Shown here piece by piece: positions 1,995 to 16,326 of a stretch of DNA of 20,498 nt. Numbering within the stretch: position 1 is the first letter of the stretch; every line of letters begins with the position of its first letter. Below the pieces are notes generated by a model, which did not search any database, was not told where the DNA came from, and saw only the letters and a program-made list of their open reading frames with translations. This stretch comes from Candidatus Nanohalobium sp. (GTDB lineage Archaea > Nanohalarchaeota > Nanosalinia > Nanosalinales > Nanosalinaceae), in assembly GCA_042217555.1 (NCBI GenBank), contig JBDGSL010000084.1, positions 1 to 20,498 of the forward strand, read 5' to 3'. The position numbers and the translations under genes were made by a program.

Positions 1995-3134
1995 ATGAAA
2001 GATCCGATTTATGAGTTGAAACTTGAAAGTAGAACCGACAGGGGTAAGGAGATTTACGAGTTTAAGTCTTCTGATGGTGTACCGTCAAAAGACAACTTCA
2101 GGGATTCTGAAATTGCACTGGCAGACACAGTAAATCCAGCACCTGAAGACGATATCTTGGTAATTCAGTCAGGATATGGATTCCTTCCAGTGATACTCGC
2201 AGACCAAGCTCCAAATGGAAAGACAATAGCAGGAGAAACTAGCGATCGTGCATATCAACTCACCAAATTAAATCTAGATAACAACAGAGTTGAAAATTGT
2301 ACACCTCAGAAGGTAGCTTTCTACACTGAAATCGATAAAAAGTTCGATAAGGTAGTGTACGCTCCGCGAGGTTACGAACCTGTGGACGTCGTAAAAAACA
2401 GGCTTTCAAATGCTGTTAAACTACTGGAAAACGGCGGAGAAATACTCATAGCCGGGAAGAAAACCTCCGGTATCAATCGATACCAGAGCCACCTCAAATC
2501 GTTTGCAGGAAATACTGAGAAATTAGACCAGCAAGGAAAACAGAAAGTCTACAGATACACCAAAAAAGGAGAATTTGAACCAGAAAATATAGATATAGAA
2601 ACCAACTTCAAAGCAAAAGTCGATGAGATAGAACTTGAATTCACTGCCTGCGAAGGACTCTTCTCCCCAAAAAGCCTAGACGATGGTAGCAGACTTCTGA
2701 TAGAAAACGTACAGGTCGACGAAGAAGATGAAGTACTAGACCTTGCCTGTGGATACGGAATAGTCGGGATATTCATGCAGAAGCTTCATGGCAGTAAGAT
2801 TTCTATGACCGACGACAATAGGATAGCGACACACTTCTGTAAGAAGAATGCAGAGGAAACAAATGTCGAATGTAAAGTCAAGAACAGAGATTGCCTTGAC
2901 GGTTTTCCGAACAAAAAATTCGACGCTATAGTCTCCAACCCGCCAACACATCAAGGAGAGGAAATCACTGATGAAATGTTCGAGCAATCTTACAAGTCAC
3001 TACGAAACGGTGGGAGTCTATATTTGGTCTATAACCGGAACATGAGATTCGAAGAAAAGCTCTCGAAGATGTTCAAAGAGACAGAAACACTTGAGAAAGC
3101 AGACAATTACCTTGTTCTGAAAGCGATAAAGTAA
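1995..3134 (+). CDS. RsmC/RlmG-like two-domain SAM-dependent (MTS family) methyltransferase, paralog 1
   Basis: GLFSPKSLDDGSRLL, LDLACGYG (motif I) and IVSNPPTH (motif IV), plus a degenerate N-terminal MTase domain (QSGYG). Confidence 0.85.
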   Translation: MKDPIYELKLESRTDRGKEIYEFKSSDGVPSKDNFRDSEIALADTVNPAPEDDILVIQSGYGFLPVILADQAPNGKTIAGETSDRAYQLTKLNLDNNRVENCTPQKVAFYTEIDKKFDKVVYAPRGYEPVDVVKNRLSNAVKLLENGGEILIAGKKTSGINRYQSHLKSFAGNTEKLDQQGKQKVYRYTKKGEFEPENIDIETNFKAKVDEIELEFTACEGLFSPKSLDDGSRLLIENVQVDEEDEVLDLACGYGIVGIFMQKLHGSKISMTDDNRIATHFCKKNAEETNVECKVKNRDCLDGFPNKKFDAIVSNPPTHQGEEITDEMFEQSYKSLRNGGSLYLVYNRNMRFEEKLSKMFKETETLEKADNYLVLKAIK

Positions 3135-8513: not shown

Positions 8514-9353
8514 CTAATTGAATTCTAGTTCAAACTTGTTTCTTCTTCCTTCCTGGCCTTTAGGCAATGTATTTTCGGTCTGGTAGTGTTTGCCTATAAT
8601 TAAAGCCTCTAATGTTTTTCTTGAGTCTTTAACTCGGGCAATCGAGAACTTGGCGTCTTCACCGAATTTCTTTTCGTGCTTGTAGAGTCTCTGTTTGATG
8701 TTCTTGGCTTGACCGATGTAGGCGAGTGGTGGTGCGTGGTTTTCAAACCATATCCTGTATACTGCTGTACCTGGCTCCACTTCCAATCTGTTGACCAATC
8801 TATCAGGTTGACTCCAGTCTAAACCCATCCACCTGCTATCAAGAACGTTTTCTTGTCTAGAATAATCAATTGAGTCTAGTTCAGTATGCATAGCGGCCCG
8901 TTCTTCTAAAGACTTCAAAACATGACTACGATCTAGGTTTACGGTTGGCGCAGTATCTTGACTCTGAATGTGTAAAGCAACCAGCAAGTATTCTAAACCG
9001 TATAGATCTATTTCCGACCTTGCAATGTTAGGATTCGCCACGCTGACTTGGAAGCCTTCACCAATTTTCTCCTTCAACTTCCATAGATGTGGTGCGGCAG
9101 TATGCGGAGCATTTCCTGGCTGTTCATCTTTATGCGTGTTATTGGCTAGCGATCTGACTCTTTCACGTAGTTTCCTACCCGTCTGACCTACGTATTCTAG
9201 GCCTTCTCTATCCTTATGTTTGACTCTATAAAGTCCGGAAGTTTTCGGCAGGTCGGATAAAGCAGGATTGTCACAGTGTAGCTGAGTCCAGTTGGTCCAT
9301 TCTAGATCCGCCCAGTCGCCAGAAGTTACTTCGGACTTATTTTCGAGATCCAT
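8514..9353 (-). CDS. Tandem GIY-YIG nuclease-domain protein
   Basis: Two modules, 'WADLEW...GLYRV...EYVGQT...LRERV' and 'WMGLDW...AVYRI...AYIGQA...IKQRL'. Likely start is the ATG at 9353. Confidence 0.8.
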   Translation of the reverse strand: MDLENKSEVTSGDWADLEWTNWTQLHCDNPALSDLPKTSGLYRVKHKDREGLEYVGQTGRKLRERVRSLANNTHKDEQPGNAPHTAAPHLWKLKEKIGEGFQVSVANPNIARSEIDLYGLEYLLVALHIQSQDTAPTVNLDRSHVLKSLEERAAMHTELDSIDYSRQENVLDSRWMGLDWSQPDRLVNRLEVEPGTAVYRIWFENHAPPLAYIGQAKNIKQRLYKHEKKFGEDAKFSIARVKDSRKTLEALIIGKHYQTENTLPKGQEGRRNKFELEFN

Positions 9354-9368
9354 GAAAAATCGTCTAAA

Positions 9369-9378
9369 GTTAATTAAC
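9369..9378. promoter_or_regulatory. Palindromic GTTAATTAAC; candidate bidirectional TATA element
   Basis: A perfect 10-bp palindrome within the 46-bp gap between the divergent ATGs at 9353 and 9400. Confidence 0.5.
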
Positions 9379-9399
9379 GTGGCTAGAGTTTTGAATTGT

Positions 9400-9849
9400 A
9401 TGGAGATAGGGCTGATAAGCTGCACAAAATCGAAGAAGGACGAGAAATCTCAGCCAAAAGAACTGTATATGGAGTCACAGCTGTTCCGCAAGAAACGGAA
9501 GTACGCAGAGAAACATCACGACAAGTGGTACATACTATCAGCTAAACATGGACTACTTGACCCTGAAGGTCAGCCAATAGAACCGTATGATGATACCCTT
9601 TCCGGTGCGAAGATCGGTAGAAAACGTGAGTGGAGTAAGAAGATTTTCAGGGAGATGAAACGAAGAGGCATTCTGGATGACGAGCTTGTCTTTCACGCTG
9701 GAAAAGATTACTACGGCTGTATCGTGCCTTTACTAGATAAAGAAGATGTTTCCTACCGTATACCTACTAGTGGACTTGGTATTGGGGAAAAGCTTGCGTG
9801 GTATACCGACCACCAGGTTAAACTTTTAACAAGATGCTTAATTTTCTAA
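9400..9849 (+). CDS. DUF6884-like (YaaA-related) protein
   Basis: 'ISCTKSK...PKELY...LFRK...WYILSAKHGLL...IEPYD...HAGKDY...GLGIGE' pattern. Likely start is the ATG at 9400. Confidence 0.75.
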   Translation: MEIGLISCTKSKKDEKSQPKELYMESQLFRKKRKYAEKHHDKWYILSAKHGLLDPEGQPIEPYDDTLSGAKIGRKREWSKKIFREMKRRGILDDELVFHAGKDYYGCIVPLLDKEDVSYRIPTSGLGIGEKLAWYTDHQVKLLTRCLIF

Positions 9850-10039: not shown

Positions 10040-10231
10040 ATGACCGACATACACGACAAAGAACGAGAACTTGACCAGTCCTTTAACCAGAACGAACCTC
10101 TCTATAGGTTGGAGACTCTAATTGACATACTGAAAGGTTTCATAGAGCACGACCAGATAACAGTAGAAGAAGCTCAAGAATACGAATCACATATTAGCGA
10201 AATAGAAGAGGAGTTAGAAGAAAGTATTTAG
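10040..10231 (+). CDS. Small acidic hypothetical protein
   Basis: 63 aa, E/D-rich, with TTTATAA at 10006-10012 upstream. Its stop abuts the tRNA-Pro 3' end. Confidence 0.6.
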   Translation: MTDIHDKERELDQSFNQNEPLYRLETLIDILKGFIEHDQITVEEAQEYESHISEIEEELEESI

Positions 10232-10302
10232 TGGCAGGAGGCGGATTTGAACCGCCGTCCGCACGTTCCGAACGTGCGATGATACCGCTACACTATCCCG
10301 CC
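10232..10302 (-). tRNA. tRNA-Pro(CGG), atypical (A37, G1-C72, G4-U69); no encoded CCA
   Basis: GGCGGGA TA GTGTAGCGGTATCAT C GCACG TTCGGAA CGTGC GGAC GGCGG TTCAAAT CCGCC TCCTGCC A forms a complete 71-nt cloverleaf; anticodon at 10270-10268. Confidence 0.9.
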
Positions 10303-10325
10303 AAAAAATTAGGAGAAAGAAGTTG

Positions 10326-11546
10326 TTAGCTCATTTCTTCCACCACTTCTCCTGCTTCAACTTCCTTCTTTTCTCCACTTCTGGACTCTATCTCAATCTT
10401 TCCGTCCTCAAGGAAGTTACTGCCCACGATAACTTTGCGGTTTACTCCGAGAAGATCAGAATCCCTGAACTGCTCTCCTGTGGACCGCTGACCGTCATAA
10501 AGCAGAACGTCTACTCCCTGCCCCTGTAGCTCTTGATAGATGCTCTCTGCTTTCTCCGTTACTTCCTCTTCGTGCCTTGCGGCAATCACAGAAAAGTTGA
10601 AAGCAGACACTTCTTCATTCCAAGTGATGCCATTCTGATCGTGATTCTGCTCTATGATCGCTGAAATCAATCGACTTACTCCGATCCCATAACTGGCCAT
10701 AACCACGTTCTCTGTATCTCCCTCTTCGGTATCGAAGGTTAGATCCATAGCTTCGCTGTATCGGGTTCCAAGTTTGAAACAGTGACCTATCTCTATACCG
10801 TTCACTTCACGGAGCTCTGAACCGCAGTTGCCGCAGTCGGCAGTTTCCAAGTCTTTGGTCCCAAATTCACAGTTGTCACATTTGAGGTATGTGTCGCTTC
10901 CGATCTCTGCTTCTGCCATAAATTCGTGGCTTTGACTTCCTCCCATAGAGCCGTTGTCAGCCGCAACTACAGAATACTCAAGACCGAGCCTATCGAAGAT
11001 AGTTCGGTAGGCGTTGAGGAACTCACGGTACTTCAACTGTAAACCTTCTCTGTCTTTGTGGAAGCTATAGGCGTCCTTCATAACGAACTCTTTCGCCCGC
11101 AAAAGACCGTTTCTGGCGTGGTCGTCCCTGAACTTTCTACCAATCTGGTAGATCGTTAGGTCGAGATCCCTGTAGCTCCTGATATACTTTCTTGTGAGTT
11201 CTACGGATGCTTCTTCGTGTGTTGCGGCGATGGTGAAGTCTTTGTCGTCTCTGTTCTTGAAGTTGAAGAACTCTTCTCCTTCAAAGTTCTTCCAACGCCC
11301 TGACTTCTCCCACAGTTCACTGGTCTGGAGAAGGTTCATCTTCACTTCTTGCCCGATTTCGTCCATTTCTTCTCTGATCACTGATTCTATGTTATTCAGA
11401 ACTCTCTGACCGAGATGGGAGAATCCGAAGGTTCCAGAGCCGTAGTTATGGACAAGTCCTGCTTGAACCGCCAGTTCAGCACTTTTACAGTGCGTATCGG
11501 CCTCCGTTTCCTTGGAGCTGGTTACGAAGAGATTACTGCGTCTCAC
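10326..11546 (-). CDS. proS: Proline--tRNA ligase, bacterial-type, short form lacking the INS editing domain
   Basis: MRRS...AGL...GSG N-terminus, LWEKSGRW, THEE, motif 2 YQIGRKFRD...EFVMKDAYSFH, GIEIGHCFKLGTRYS and motif 3 SYGIGVSR. Only a CxxC..CxxC loop sits where INS would be. GGTGAT SD before the GTG. Confidence 0.93.
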   Translation of the reverse strand: MRRSNLFVTSSKETEADTHCKSAELAVQAGLVHNYGSGTFGFSHLGQRVLNNIESVIREEMDEIGQEVKMNLLQTSELWEKSGRWKNFEGEEFFNFKNRDDKDFTIAATHEEASVELTRKYIRSYRDLDLTIYQIGRKFRDDHARNGLLRAKEFVMKDAYSFHKDREGLQLKYREFLNAYRTIFDRLGLEYSVVAADNGSMGGSQSHEFMAEAEIGSDTYLKCDNCEFGTKDLETADCGNCGSELREVNGIEIGHCFKLGTRYSEAMDLTFDTEEGDTENVVMASYGIGVSRLISAIIEQNHDQNGITWNEEVSAFNFSVIAARHEEEVTEKAESIYQELQGQGVDVLLYDGQRSTGEQFRDSDLLGVNRKVIVGSNFLEDGKIEIESRSGEKKEVEAGEVVEEMS

Positions 11547-11597
11547 CGCAGATCACCAGAAGTTGAGAAAGAATTTTTGTTAATAGATTTTGAGTGG

Positions 11598-11654
11598 TTA
11601 TCGAATCTGTTGTCGTGGTGGAACGTATCCACCTGTAGTTGAAACTTTGTTCAT
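11598..11654 (-). CDS. Putative leader peptide (uORF) of proS, MNKVSTTGGYVPPRQQIR
   Basis: An 18-codon ORF on the same strand, ending 51 nt before proS. Tandem CCA CCA codons lie on the 3' arm of the hairpin GGTGGA-TACGT-TCCACC. Confidence 0.5.
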   Translation of the reverse strand: MNKVSTTGGYVPPRQQIR

Positions 11655-11774
11655 AGAAATCACGGAAAATTCGGTATTCTGGCGACTAAAAGAACTCTCA
11701 AATATTCTACTGCCGAGGAACGTAGTCACCAGACATAACTCAAGAAGTTTTGGTGAATCTCTTAAATGTTTTGC

Positions 11775-12917
11775 CTATTTCGTAGCTCTGGTAACGGCGT
11801 AGTTGTCTTTCTTTTCCAGTATTTCTACCTTCTTGAATATTTGTTCTAACTGTTGTTCGTAGTTCATATTTTGGTTGTAGACGATGTAGAGTTCTCCACC
11901 TTTCCTTAATCTTTGATAGGAGTTCTGGAATATTTCGTCTGTTATTCCTTTGCCTTGATGTGTTGGAGGGTTAGATACTATCTTGTCGAATTTCTTTCCC
12001 TCAAATGTGTCGAGGCAGTCGGCGTGTTCCAAACTGTATTTTTCTATTTCGTTAAGTTGAAGGTTTCTTCCCGTCTGTTTTACTGCTTTCAGGTTGTTGT
12101 CGCTAAAGTAGATTTCAGGATCGTAGAGCTTTTTGAGGAAGATTCCGATAGCTCCATATCCGCAGGCCACGTCCCAAACTTTGTCTCCTGAATCTGCCTC
12201 TATATTTTCTATAAGTAACCTGCTTCCTTTGTCCAGAGAGGTAGGTGAGAACAGCCCTTCCACTGTCTCAAAATTGGCTTTAACACCATTTATTTCTGCT
12301 TCAAAACTTCTCTCAACGTCCACTTTTCGGTCTTCTATTTCTCCCTGTTTACTGTATCTGTATACGTGATAACCGTCCCTACTGTTAATCTTATCGAGTT
12401 CGCCGTCAAACTGTTTGAGCCAATCCTTGTACCTGTTGAGCCCTTCTTTCTTGCTGGAGGCAAGGTATAGTTCGCCGTCTTCTTCCAGCAAGTTGATTGC
12501 TTCTGTCAGGTTGTTTTTGACTATATCGGTGTTGGCGTATGGTTTCGGTGCGTAGAGAACCTTGTCGAAACTCTGCTCTATATCCTTTGGAGAGCTTATC
12601 TTCTTGCTTTGAGTATTTTCTATATCGTTTAGTTTGAGGTTGTGTTTGGTTATTTTGTGGGCTCTGTCGCTGGATTCTGCTAAAACTGTCTTTCCTTCAG
12701 GGGTGTAGTCTGCGAATATTACTCCGAGAAAACCGTAGCCCGGATACAGAACCAGTAAATCTTCCTCCTCTCCTGTTTCGACTGTATCAGCTAATAGAAG
12801 CTCTGCTTTCCTAAATCCTTCTTTGGATGCTACGCCGTCAGCAGTCTCAAAACTGTAAACCTTGCTTCCTTGATCGGTTTCAGATTTTAGTTTGAAACTG
12901 TACTGAAAACTGTCCAT
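11775..12917 (-). CDS. RsmC/RlmG-like two-domain MTS methyltransferase, paralog 2
   Basis: GLFSPTSLDKGSRLL, WDVACGYG and IVSNPPTHQG; colinear with 1995..3134. TTTAAA about 25 nt before the ATG suggests a leaderless transcript. Confidence 0.85.
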   Translation of the reverse strand: MDSFQYSFKLKSETDQGSKVYSFETADGVASKEGFRKAELLLADTVETGEEEDLLVLYPGYGFLGVIFADYTPEGKTVLAESSDRAHKITKHNLKLNDIENTQSKKISSPKDIEQSFDKVLYAPKPYANTDIVKNNLTEAINLLEEDGELYLASSKKEGLNRYKDWLKQFDGELDKINSRDGYHVYRYSKQGEIEDRKVDVERSFEAEINGVKANFETVEGLFSPTSLDKGSRLLIENIEADSGDKVWDVACGYGAIGIFLKKLYDPEIYFSDNNLKAVKQTGRNLQLNEIEKYSLEHADCLDTFEGKKFDKIVSNPPTHQGKGITDEIFQNSYQRLRKGGELYIVYNQNMNYEQQLEQIFKKVEILEKKDNYAVTRATK

Positions 12918-13006: not shown

Positions 13007-13537
13007 ATGGCTGGAACAGTATTCCTTGAAGGCGAAAAAATCAACTTGAGGACAATAGAAGAGGAAGATATAGAATTTCTACGAGACGGGGTAAATCACC
13101 CTGAAGTCCGCGTATATATGGGTAACAGAAAACCTCAAAACTACGAAAACGAAGAAGAGTTCTTTGAAGAACAAATCTGCGGAGAAGAAACAGTAGACCT
13201 GATGATTTCCAGAGATAGAGAAAAACTGGGCATAATCAGTCTAATGCCACAAGGAGATGACGCAGAAAAACTTGCCGAAATCGGTATCTGGATACACCCA
13301 GAACACCACGGAAACGGATACGGCACAGAAGCCTCCCAACTAATCACAGACTACGCCTTCAACCAATTAAACTACCATAAAATATACGCACGAGCTTATC
13401 AAGGTAACAAGGCGTCGCAGAGTGTCTGGGAAAAACTTGGGTTTGATAAGGAAGGAGTATTCAAAGACCACACCTTTACACAGGGCGAATACAAAGATGT
13501 CGTTTACTACGGTGTTTTAGAAGGTGATTGGCAGTGA
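13007..13537 (+). CDS. GNAT N-acetyltransferase, RimJ/RimL family
   Basis: 'LRTIEEED...AEIGIWIHPEHHGNGYGTEA...YAFNQLNYHKI...NKASQSVWEKLGF..EG'. Confidence 0.9.
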   Translation: MAGTVFLEGEKINLRTIEEEDIEFLRDGVNHPEVRVYMGNRKPQNYENEEEFFEEQICGEETVDLMISRDREKLGIISLMPQGDDAEKLAEIGIWIHPEHHGNGYGTEASQLITDYAFNQLNYHKIYARAYQGNKASQSVWEKLGFDKEGVFKDHTFTQGEYKDVVYYGVLEGDWQ

Positions 13538-14073
13538 CAGAAACCAAAAGTAAGTTTATGGAGTGGGATGATGTAGTTCTCCGACCTGTAGAAATGGATG
13601 ACGCAGAGTTTATCGCAGAAACAATCAGTCACGGCGAGGTCAGAGCATACCTTGGTAGAGCTCCGAGACCTATTAATGTATCACAGGAGGAAGAGTATAT
13701 TGAGGAGTTTAGTTCAGAGGATGACAGCGTTCATTTCCTTATAGAGTATCAAGGAGAAAAAGTCGGACACATATTCTTGGGTGGTTTGGAAAGTGATTAT
13801 GGTCGTAGCCACGTAGGATACTTTATACACCCAGAATATCACGGACAAGGAATCGGCACAAAGAGCTTGAAAATGGTCGTAACCTACACTTTCGAGACCC
13901 TGAATCGACACAAGATTAGAGGAGGATACTTGGAAGGAAACCCTGCCTCAAGACGAGTAATGGAAAAAGCAGGATTCCAAGAAGAAGGTACGGAAAGGCA
14001 CTATAAGTATGTAGACGGAGAATGGAAAAACGTCACTTGGATGAGCATACTGGAAAGTGAATACTATGAATAG
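13534..14073 (+). CDS. GNAT N-acetyltransferase, RimJ/RimL family (tandem paralog)
   Basis: 'VGYFIHPEYHGQGIGT...NPASRRVMEKAGFQEEG'. The GTG at 13534 overlaps the upstream TGA; alternative starts are 13528 and 13558. Confidence 0.88.
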   Translation: MTETKSKFMEWDDVVLRPVEMDDAEFIAETISHGEVRAYLGRAPRPINVSQEEEYIEEFSSEDDSVHFLIEYQGEKVGHIFLGGLESDYGRSHVGYFIHPEYHGQGIGTKSLKMVVTYTFETLNRHKIRGGYLEGNPASRRVMEKAGFQEEGTERHYKYVDGEWKNVTWMSILESEYYE

Positions 14074-14094
14074 TCTAAATAAAAAATTGATACT

Positions 14095-14832
14095 ATGAGA
14101 CCAGAAGAAGACGCTTACGGAGAAATACTTCACGCTATCCATACAGGTTCCGACCCTGAAGCAGGAGAAATTATAGAAAGAGACGACGGATTCATTCAAC
14201 ACACAGGATCAGCTAAAACCTATTTTCAAGAGTACAAGGAATGGTCTGAACAAGCTCAAGAAGCCATCCAACACGCACACGGAACCGTTTTAGATATTGG
14301 TTGTGGGGCAGGAAGACACGCACTATACTTACAAAACGAAAAAGGATTAACTGTTCGTGGAATAGATGTTTCTCCAAAAGCTATCGAAGTAGCCTCTGAT
14401 AGAGGGGTTGAGAAAACAAGCGTAGCTGGAATCAAAGATATTTCTGAACTATCTGAATCACCATATGACACTATAGTAATGCTTGGAAACAATCTTGGAT
14501 TATTAGGGACAAAACCCATTGAGCACCTTAACAAACTGGCAGACGCAACAACTGAAAACGCAACTCTGATCGGCCAAACCAGAGAGGCAACAGCCACAGA
14601 AAATCCAGAACACGTTCAATACCATCACTATAACAAAGTCCGAAACCGCCGACCCGGATGCCTACGCTTCCGCATACGCTACAAACACTTCAAAACACCA
14701 TTCTACGACTACCTCTACCTTGACAAAAACGAACTGAAAGAAATACTGGAACAAACCCCTTGGAAACTAAACACCACATACACTTCTGAAGAAACAACAG
14801 CATACACAGTAATCCTCGAGAAATCAAGATGA
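14095..14832 (+). CDS. Class I SAM-dependent methyltransferase
   Basis: VLDIGCGAGRHA, GIDVSP and YDTIVMLGNN. Confidence 0.88.
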   Translation: MRPEEDAYGEILHAIHTGSDPEAGEIIERDDGFIQHTGSAKTYFQEYKEWSEQAQEAIQHAHGTVLDIGCGAGRHALYLQNEKGLTVRGIDVSPKAIEVASDRGVEKTSVAGIKDISELSESPYDTIVMLGNNLGLLGTKPIEHLNKLADATTENATLIGQTREATATENPEHVQYHHYNKVRNRRPGCLRFRIRYKHFKTPFYDYLYLDKNELKEILEQTPWKLNTTYTSEETTAYTVILEKSR

Positions 14833-14839
14833 ACTTACT

Positions 14840-15298
14840 ATGAGAATAAGACGCTATCAACCTGAAGACAGTATTGGACCGTTGATCAGCAGATCTGTCG
14901 AAGATATTGATCCAGAGCATTATTCAAATGAACAGCAAAGGCATTTAGAAGAAGTAATCCCTGAAATGAATTTGGAGTTTGCTGAAAAAGACAGATACAA
15001 CTATTTCGTAGCCGTAGAAGATGACGAAATTATAGGAGTAGCGGGATATCAAAGCGAAAGTGGTACCGTAGCAGGAATCTTTGTAGATCCAGAACTCAAG
15101 GGTTCAGGCATAGGGTCGAAGCTAATGGATAGGATTGAGGAGGATGCCCAGTCAGAAGGGTTAGAGGAGATGGAGACTCTTGCCTCTTTGGAAGCAGTAG
15201 AGTTCTACAAGAAAAATAGCTACAAAGTTACAGAGGAAAAGAAACACGACATAGAAGGCAAAGACATAGGAATCAAAGTAATGAAGAAACAACTATAG
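14840..15298 (+). CDS. GNAT N-acetyltransferase
   Basis: 'IFVDPELKGSGIGSKLM...ASLEAVEFYKKNSY' acetyl-CoA binding motifs. Confidence 0.85.
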   Translation: MRIRRYQPEDSIGPLISRSVEDIDPEHYSNEQQRHLEEVIPEMNLEFAEKDRYNYFVAVEDDEIIGVAGYQSESGTVAGIFVDPELKGSGIGSKLMDRIEEDAQSEGLEEMETLASLEAVEFYKKNSYKVTEEKKHDIEGKDIGIKVMKKQL

Positions 15299-16179: not shown

Positions 16180-16326
16180 GGGCCCGTAGCTCAGCTTGGA
16201 CAGAGCATTCGGCTTCGGAACCTTAAGTTCTCCGATCTCTTGAGGAGAACAAGGAAAGAGAAGCGAACTTTGTGAGCTTCGACAGAAGTTACCGAAAGGT
16301 CCAGGGTTCAAATCCCTGCGGGCTCG
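16180..16326 (+). tRNA. tRNA-Arg(UCG) with a 72-nt intron (16219-16290) at position 37/38
   Basis: Exon 1 is GGGCCCGTAGCTCAGCTTGGACAGAGCATTCGGCTTCGG and exon 2 is ACCGAAAGGTCCAGGGTTCAAATCCCTGCGGGCTCG. The BHB-like junction has a CTTC/GAAG helix with GG|A and TT|A bulges. Confidence 0.92.

Follow-up and report, generated by a model that had tools for sequence, protein, structure and literature searches.

Gene content and tRNA anatomy

The window, that is, the whole 20,498-nt stretch analysed here (contig JBDGSL010000084.1 of the Candidatus Nanohalobium sp. assembly GCA_042217555.1), carries on its minus strand what appears to be a small accessory operon: a leader with two short upstream ORFs (uORF1 and uORF2), a proS gene for a bacterial-type ProRS, and a tRNA-Pro(CGG) gene beginning 24 nt past the last base of proS (Table 1). 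Public sequencing runs containing the stretch are mostly from salt lakes.

Table 1. Features of the proS–tRNA-Pro locus, in window coordinates.
Feature	Position	Strand	Basis and details
APH-family kinase gene remnant	10040..10231	plus	Stops at the tRNA 3' end
tRNA-Pro(CGG)	10232..10302	minus	ARAGORN; Rfam RF00005, 58.2 bits
U-rich spacer, proS to tRNA	10303..10325	minus	Sequence; function predicted
Accessory bacterial-type (P-type) ProRS, 406 aa	10326..11557	minus	GTG start 11546, SD 11557-11552; TIGR00409
Hairpin P2, small, inside uORF2	11633-11617	minus	Pairs vary on one side only
SD and uORF2, 18 codons, G-G-Y-V-P-P	11598..11663	minus	SD GTGAT 11663-11659, uORF2 11654-11598; conserved across loci
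Stem P1	11678..11733	minus	11733-11724 (transcript nt 4-13, within uORF1) with 11687-11678; covariation
uORF1, 9 codons, G-D-Y-V-P, Pro at codon 7	11707..11736	minus	Conserved across loci
TATA-like box TTTAAG	11761..11766	minus	-30..-25 from the uORF1 ATG; sequence

The tRNA gene is intron-less, does not encode CCA, and folds into an intact cloverleaf. ARAGORN and Rfam agree with the preliminary description, made from the sequence alone, that it is a tRNA-Pro(CGG) with A at position 37 (window 10267), and the loop given there (U32 U33 C34 G35 G36 A37 A38, on a perfect GCACG/CGTGC stem) is confirmed. Measured against the archaeal tRNA-Pro identity set (PMC11229370, PMC9976931), it has G1-C72 and A73 on a lineage-like body, and A37 in place of G37, the m1G37 site. 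With canonical m1G37 tRNA-Pro(CGG) (10.1101/2020.09.01.277525, PMC9976931), the gene in the window shares C34-G35-G36, U32-A38, and A73; A37 here, against a methylated G37 there, is the difference.

Other peculiarities attributed to this tRNA turn out to be ordinary. The G4-U69 wobble is present, but an acceptor stem containing it is common to the lineage's native tRNA-Pro genes, and so is the D-arm, which had been thought Asp/Glu-like; the anticodon stem is that of relatives' native CGG genes. The body is therefore that of a native nanohaloarchaeal tRNA-Pro, and the proposed anticodon switch from another ancestry (Asp, Glu, or Gly) is not supported. The loop ends are complementary, as had been noted, and U32-A38 pairing is described for tRNA-Pro with anticodon C34-G35-G36 (10.1101/2020.09.01.277525). 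The closing is no stronger than in a G37 copy, however: the anticodon stem-loop folds at -7.3 kcal/mol with A37 and -7.7 kcal/mol with G37, with a 3-nt loop in both, and the idea of a specially closed loop is rejected.

No TATA-like box was found directly before the tRNA, a weak test since the motif matched just 22 of 42 tRNA calls. The U-rich spacer is a possible terminator that would have to be read through to reach the tRNA; similar pyrimidine tracts also lie 3' of proS at several loci with no tRNA. Introns are present in most tRNA calls of the assembly, including one of about 72 nt in a tRNA-Arg(UCG) at 16180-16326 on the plus strand; neither of its two spare tRNA-Pro genes has one.

A37 as a probable rare allele

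A search pattern made from the 5' half of the lineage's tRNA-Pro was applied to 70 nanohaloarchaeal genomes of the phylum. It gave 101 matches in 58 of them: 88 continue as Y-Y-N-G-G-G37, 11 are GGG tRNAs in which positions 32 and 37 are both G, one combines G37 with a UGA anticodon, and one is the A37 gene. A37 is thus rare in this lineage, occurring in one of 100 NGG tRNA-Pro genes, with G37 in the other 99. The pattern must miss some genes, because three of eight single-contig genomes of the family have no GGG match; none of the eight has a CGG match. A full tRNA-Pro(GGG) gene was not found in the window's assembly. Viral sequences gave a single match to the pattern, which is not a tRNA. 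The native tRNA-Pro(GGG) genes of 11 family genomes (L066-L076) are uniform, with a variant D-stem, G32, and C38 (loop G-U-GGG-G-C), and their purine at position 32 could pair with position 38.

A second copy of the tRNA lies on contig C9 of the same assembly. It matches the window's gene at 68 of 71 bases, carries G37, and follows a 96% identical ProRS. The assembly also contains three archaeal proS copies that are 74-77% identical and, judged by these sequences, is a mixture of related genomes, so the A37 and C9 copies may sit in different cells. Of metagenome cassette loci with this type of tRNA, five of five have UGG with G37, all behind the same ProRS. Three of the five have the same downstream flank as the window (two of the three are near-identical to each other), and one locus repeats the sequence of genome G055. 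Over 42 aa, the APH-family remnant shares 90% identity with the C-terminal end of a 316-aa PF01636 protein at L062, and by this similarity it marks orthology with metagenome loci L062-L064.

The read-level check of position 10267 that had been proposed could be made in part, at the level of contig depth. In four public contig sets (X1 to X4), G37 accounts for 53.2 of 97.2, 68.4 of 68.4, 16.7 of 19.5, and 8.42 of 13.6 depth units, more than half in each. Only in X1 is the non-G remainder, of about 44 units, plausibly A37; contigs identical to the window are present there at depths of 30-36. The remainders in X3 and X4 equal the depth of gapped contigs, which are probably other tRNAs. This bears on the possibility that A37 arose by misassembly, or that the gene is a dead relic of integration. 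Related genomes are mixed in the assembly, the tRNA has no promoter-like box before it, and tRNA-Pro 3' fragments occur elsewhere in the assembly, from which it follows that such genes serve as integration sites. Against this stand the X1 remainder at 10267, found beside the window-identical contigs, and the intact cloverleaf, and we regard error or relic as quite improbable.

Other spare tRNA-Pro copies vary as well, with C32 or U32, C34 or U34, G38, and an A27-C43 mismatch among them; loop changes among near-identical spare alleles are single transitions. Some copies are plainly broken, in the T-stem (G047) or in both the acceptor and T-stems (G051, with the UGA anticodon). Anticodon loops vary more in spare than in native copies, while most spare stems stay paired across alleles; the tRNA is therefore not fully neutral. 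A Trm5/Tyw2-family gene is present in the assembly, with Trm5b as its best model at a score below the Trm5b cut-off. The suggestion that this tRNA is Trm5-independent holds by definition of A37, but there is no sign of adaptation to go with it: the Trm5/Tyw2-family gene is there, and near-identical copies keep G37.

m1G37 is present in more than 95% of tRNA-Pro, and its loss leads to +1 shifts at CCC-U/C (10.1101/2020.09.01.277525). E. coli ProRS uses G37 as an additional determinant (PMC9976931), tRNA-Pro with unmodified G37 is charged less well, and mutation or duplication of E. coli proS rescues m1G37 loss (10.1101/2021.07.14.452415). These findings concern unmethylated G37, not A37 in tRNA-Pro, and a literature search gave nothing specific on natural A37 tRNA-Pro. 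We infer that the A37 tRNA is charged somewhat less well than its G37 counterpart. UGG can also read CCG, so A37 should matter little, and since the gene is redundant any frameshift effect is likely small.

A37 could instead have been selected because it lets the spare tRNA evade an anticodon nuclease or cope with scarce m1G37 methylation, with the accessory ProRS charging it. The greater variety of spare loops on stems that still pair would suit this, as would the E. coli proS rescue. However, A37 occurs in one gene only, with G37 in its sister alleles and in most of the contig depth; near-identical alleles differ by single loop transitions, and some copies are broken; a Trm5-family gene is present; and none of ten clade-rare residues in the accessory ProRS can be linked to A37. 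Such escape has reportedly been proposed for phage tRNAs, which would be a precedent. On balance an adaptive A37 seems improbable; more likely this allele of a spare tRNA-Pro is near-neutral and arose by ordinary drift.

The accessory ProRS

The accessory ProRS scores 428.9 bits against TIGR00409 (cut-off 306.7), has intact catalytic motifs in an alignment to PDB 8W8J/5UCM, and is without the INS editing domain. A complete archaeal ProRS is encoded on contig C27 of the same assembly. Codon differences from the C9 allele are 42 synonymous and 17 non-synonymous, and on this sequence comparison the enzyme is intact and under purifying selection. It is found in 13 of the 70 phylum genomes, all of them of the window's family. 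Its nearest named relatives are nanohaloarchaeal, and in a tree of 27 rows selected from 121, with a midpoint root that serves display only, it groups with haloarchaeal copies, apart from the bacterial ones. None of ten viral stretches encodes it; as for plasmids, the matches listed include no close relatives, and the leader pattern described below is unmatched there. A search by title found no literature on nanohaloarchaeal ProRS.

Bacterial ProRS reads G72 of its tRNA with an R-P-R loop (PMC11229370). The accessory ProRS departs from this in its motif-2 loop, which reads R-D-D-H-A-R-N-G instead of R-D-E-x-R-P-R-F-G. Among the top 120 ProRS matches, 90 have a loop shortened in the same way, by one residue, with H-A-R or R-A-R replacing R-P-R (77 with His and 13 with Arg at the R144 position); 18 have R-P-R-F and 12 could not be parsed. 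As far as sequence can tell, the shortened loop would fit use of an archaeal C72 tRNA, and the enzyme is a natural case for studying the adaptation of a P-type ProRS to one. In Bacillus thuringiensis (PMC11229370) a P-type and an E-type ProRS likewise coexist, the second being adapted in the motif-2 loop. The present case is its mirror image: here an archaeon has the P-type enzyme, and its tRNA-Pro genes, as far as found, all have C72 except for one broken copy.

A tRNA-Pro lies behind P-type proS at five of 16 genome loci, with none at the other 11; in G048 one lies behind a proS remnant. In three genomes (L050, L052, and L054), the accessory ProRS is beside the archaeal ProRS, or one gene off, in place of a tRNA. 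A second, bacterial-derived ProRS beside its own Pro-body tRNA recalls ProRSx/tRNA-ProX of Streptomyces and relatives (PMC10404621, PMC9437257), where a dedicated synthetase and adjacent tRNA form a system for deliberate mistranslation. G051 has a Pro-body tRNA whose anticodon is UGA, which could be taken as a hint of the same here. Unlike the Streptomyces pair, however, all tRNAs found directly behind P-type proS have cognate NGG anticodons, with archaeal G1-C72, and most loci have no tRNA at all; the UGA copy is broken and lies behind proA instead of proS. A mistranslation pair is largely refuted by the NGG anticodons and seems very improbable indeed.

A conserved leader upstream of proS

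Upstream of proS lies a conserved leader with the two uORFs. AT-rich boxes occur at about the same distance before uORF1 in most relatives, as judged by eye, and the position of the TATA-like box suggests that the transcript is leaderless, starting at the uORF1 ATG. Leaders were compared at 18 loci: 16 with P-type proS or its remnant, one in G039, and one in G051. All 17 leaders in which that part could be read have uORF1, and 15 of the 17 place Pro at codon 7; three further loci have uORF1 too. uORF2 is present at all 18, with six to nine codons from its ATG to the motif. Each uORF encodes G-x-x-[VI]-P in frame with its own ATG, with two exceptions at the first residue, and has one or two Pro codons in the motif, with no Pro tract. 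The Pro codons differ at the third base (CCT, CCA, CCG), and uORF spacing shifts by whole codons only. The first Gly codon of the motif is nearly always GGT; since this codon is near-invariant and P2 does not covary, part of the conservation must be at the RNA level.

The second strand of P1 lies 46-58 nt downstream of the transcript start, and the P1 duplex in the window has a predicted energy of -17.7 kcal/mol. Among 15 leaders, four of its ten pairs change on both sides, and 88% of cells are paired. The whole leader structure has 18 two-sided cells, a number reached by none of 500 shuffles, although kinship inflates this statistic. Folding energy of the whole leader is unremarkable (z = -0.43). 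An Rfam search of 11400-11900, T-box included, gave two chance-level matches only (E 2.1 and 3.3), and a T-box riboswitch was set aside for lack of a match.

Small additions occur at several loci. An ORF of about 100 aa, with no Pfam family in the one of three that was scanned, sits right behind the leader at L192:1123-1431, L169:349-642, and L194:1196-1537, in two of the three cases before proS or a remnant. A 50-nt insert is found before the spare tRNA, after proS or the preceding gene, in several alleles (L057:2745-2797, L062, L064, L079), and in a single copy in the window's assembly; short palindromic inserts similar to it break up some leaders.

Distribution of the leader

A leader pattern was built from the proS leaders. 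Because the Pro codon is part of the pattern itself, it is gene context that provides independent evidence. The pattern gave 13 matches in 12 of the 70 genomes, ten before P-type proS and three at new loci: before archaeal proS in G039, before a proC-proB fusion and proA in G051, and before the proS remnant and tRNA-Pro in G048. A covariance model trained on 15 leaders matched 18 times in 16 of the 70 genomes, though 13 of the 18 had been used for training and related sequences do not count as independent. In 16 of the 18 cases the match precedes proline-supply genes, either a ProRS of one type or the other or a proline-biosynthesis operon. Five matches are outside the training set. Those on C9 and in G067 are before P-type proS; the one in G038 is before a proC-proB-like gene (identified by eye), proA, and archaeal proS; the one in G042 stops at a contig end; and the one at G062:C2 is followed by a small ORF and a gene without a link to proline. 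proA is over the cut-off in only two of the 70 genomes, and in both the leader stands before the proA operon. No leader was found before the housekeeping proS of the window's assembly, before two INS-less ProRS loci of Woesearchaeota/Nanoarchaeia, or in viral sequences searched with the leader pattern. In G051 (L079:4978-8263), the leader, proC-proB fusion, proA, a gene for a CsaA-like tRNA-binding protein, and the broken UGA Pro-body tRNA form one unit.

Read in this context, the leader is quite likely to be a functional, ribosome-read gauge of proline supply. The alternative is a conserved RNA element, such as a protein-binding site, a riboswitch-like structure, or a translation enhancer, with the uORFs as by-products; it might then answer to a signal other than Pro-tRNA, for instance general stalling. 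The near-invariant GGT codon, SD-like GGTG boxes, and the P1 and P2 stems could all be explained in this way, as could the copy before a non-proline gene and the lack of a consistent SD switch (see below). It accounts poorly, however, for two independent ATGs kept in frame with a Pro codon despite whole-codon indels, and for a uORF2 with its own SD; G067 has lost the uORF2 ATG in one leader but has a second, intact copy. Nor does any Rfam family score in the leader. An RNA element of this kind is an unlikely explanation.

Proposed mechanism

Combining these observations, we think it reasonably probable that A37 is a near-neutral allele of a spare tRNA-Pro closing an accessory operon (two-uORF leader, bacterial-type ProRS, tRNA-Pro), and that the leader switches on this backup proline-supply operon when charged tRNA-Pro is short. 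Transcription would start at the uORF1 ATG. When Pro-tRNA is short, a ribosome would wait at Pro codon 7 of uORF1 while its P site is occupied by Val codon 6 (nt 16-18). In H. volcanii, where about 70% of mRNAs are leaderless, ribosome footprints begin 12 nt before the codon in the P site (PMC7261190). A waiting ribosome would then cover about 12 nt upstream of the P site (nt 4-15), which includes the 5' strand of P1 (nt 4-13), and P1 could therefore not form. With enough Pro-tRNA, the ribosome would reach the uORF1 stop, freeing the 5' strand and allowing P1 to close. uORF2 could serve as a second check on proline supply.

By analogy to the mycobacterial leaderless Cys attenuators discussed below, stalling would be the ON state, raising ProRS, proline synthesis, or tRNA-Pro, and the output of P1 may be on transcription or translation of proS. 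A switch that sequesters the proS SD gets no support from equilibrium folding: with ribosome footprints imposed on 15 leaders there was no consistent opening of the SD. The SD could alternatively pair with the 3' strand of P1; in the same 15 leaders this pairing beats shuffles only weakly. The spare tRNA is likely made by read-through of the U-rich spacer; if it is made only in this way, as suggested, relaxed selection would fit, and since it is also redundant with UGG it would be free to drift. An A37 tRNA would be charged somewhat less and would not need Trm5.

A more ambitious version would have a mobile two-uORF, ribosome-read attenuator governing a whole nanohaloarchaeal proline regulon (a bacterial-type ProRS adapted to archaeal tRNAs with C72, the archaeal ProRS, proCB-proA, and spare tRNA-Pro genes), with the A37 tRNA as a methylation-independent backup decoder induced by it. 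The chances of this entire scheme seem slim.

Leader-peptide attenuation by amino acids is a textbook device of bacteria. A search by title, with most subscription papers outside its coverage, found no archaeal or proline-sensing leader attenuator of the present form. The nearest parallel is in mycobacteria, where short leaderless ORFs encoding polycysteine act as attenuators (Canestrari et al., 10.1101/834739). There, as in the nanohaloarchaeal leaders, a short ORF with the sensed codon inside it stands at the predicted transcript start, overlaps a conserved RNA stem (here P1, which covaries), and precedes supply genes for the sensed amino acid at several unlinked loci. The differences are an archaeal host, proline, and two tandem uORFs; a fixed G-x-x-[VI]-P motif, with one or two Pro codons, in place of a codon tract; and SD accessibility without consistent change across 15 leaders.

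A37 by itself carries little weight, as one allele of a redundant gene, and the leader outweighs it in importance. The preliminary description was right that A37 is real, but missed the spare-copy status of the gene, the accessory proS operon, and the conserved leader. The latter is 125 nt long and so small enough for reporter work; it belongs to a host-dependent lineage of DPANN archaea, goes with genes for ProRS and proline synthesis, and would show how a symbiont mostly without proA gauges its proline supply.

Surroundings of the operon

Around the operon are two RsmC-like methyltransferases and three GNAT acetyltransferases (1995-3134 on the plus strand, 11775-12917 on the minus, 13007-15298 on the plus), to which relatives add APH-family kinases; together these give the region the look of a variable island of genes for modifying enzymes. 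Genes for a GIY-YIG nuclease and a DUF6884 protein lie downstream of the tRNA, at 8514-9849. Elsewhere in the window's assembly (G000), contigs C53 and C55 carry the 3' ends of tRNA-Pro(GGG) and tRNA-Pro(UGG) without the rest of the gene, the kind of remnant that integration into a tRNA gene leaves behind.
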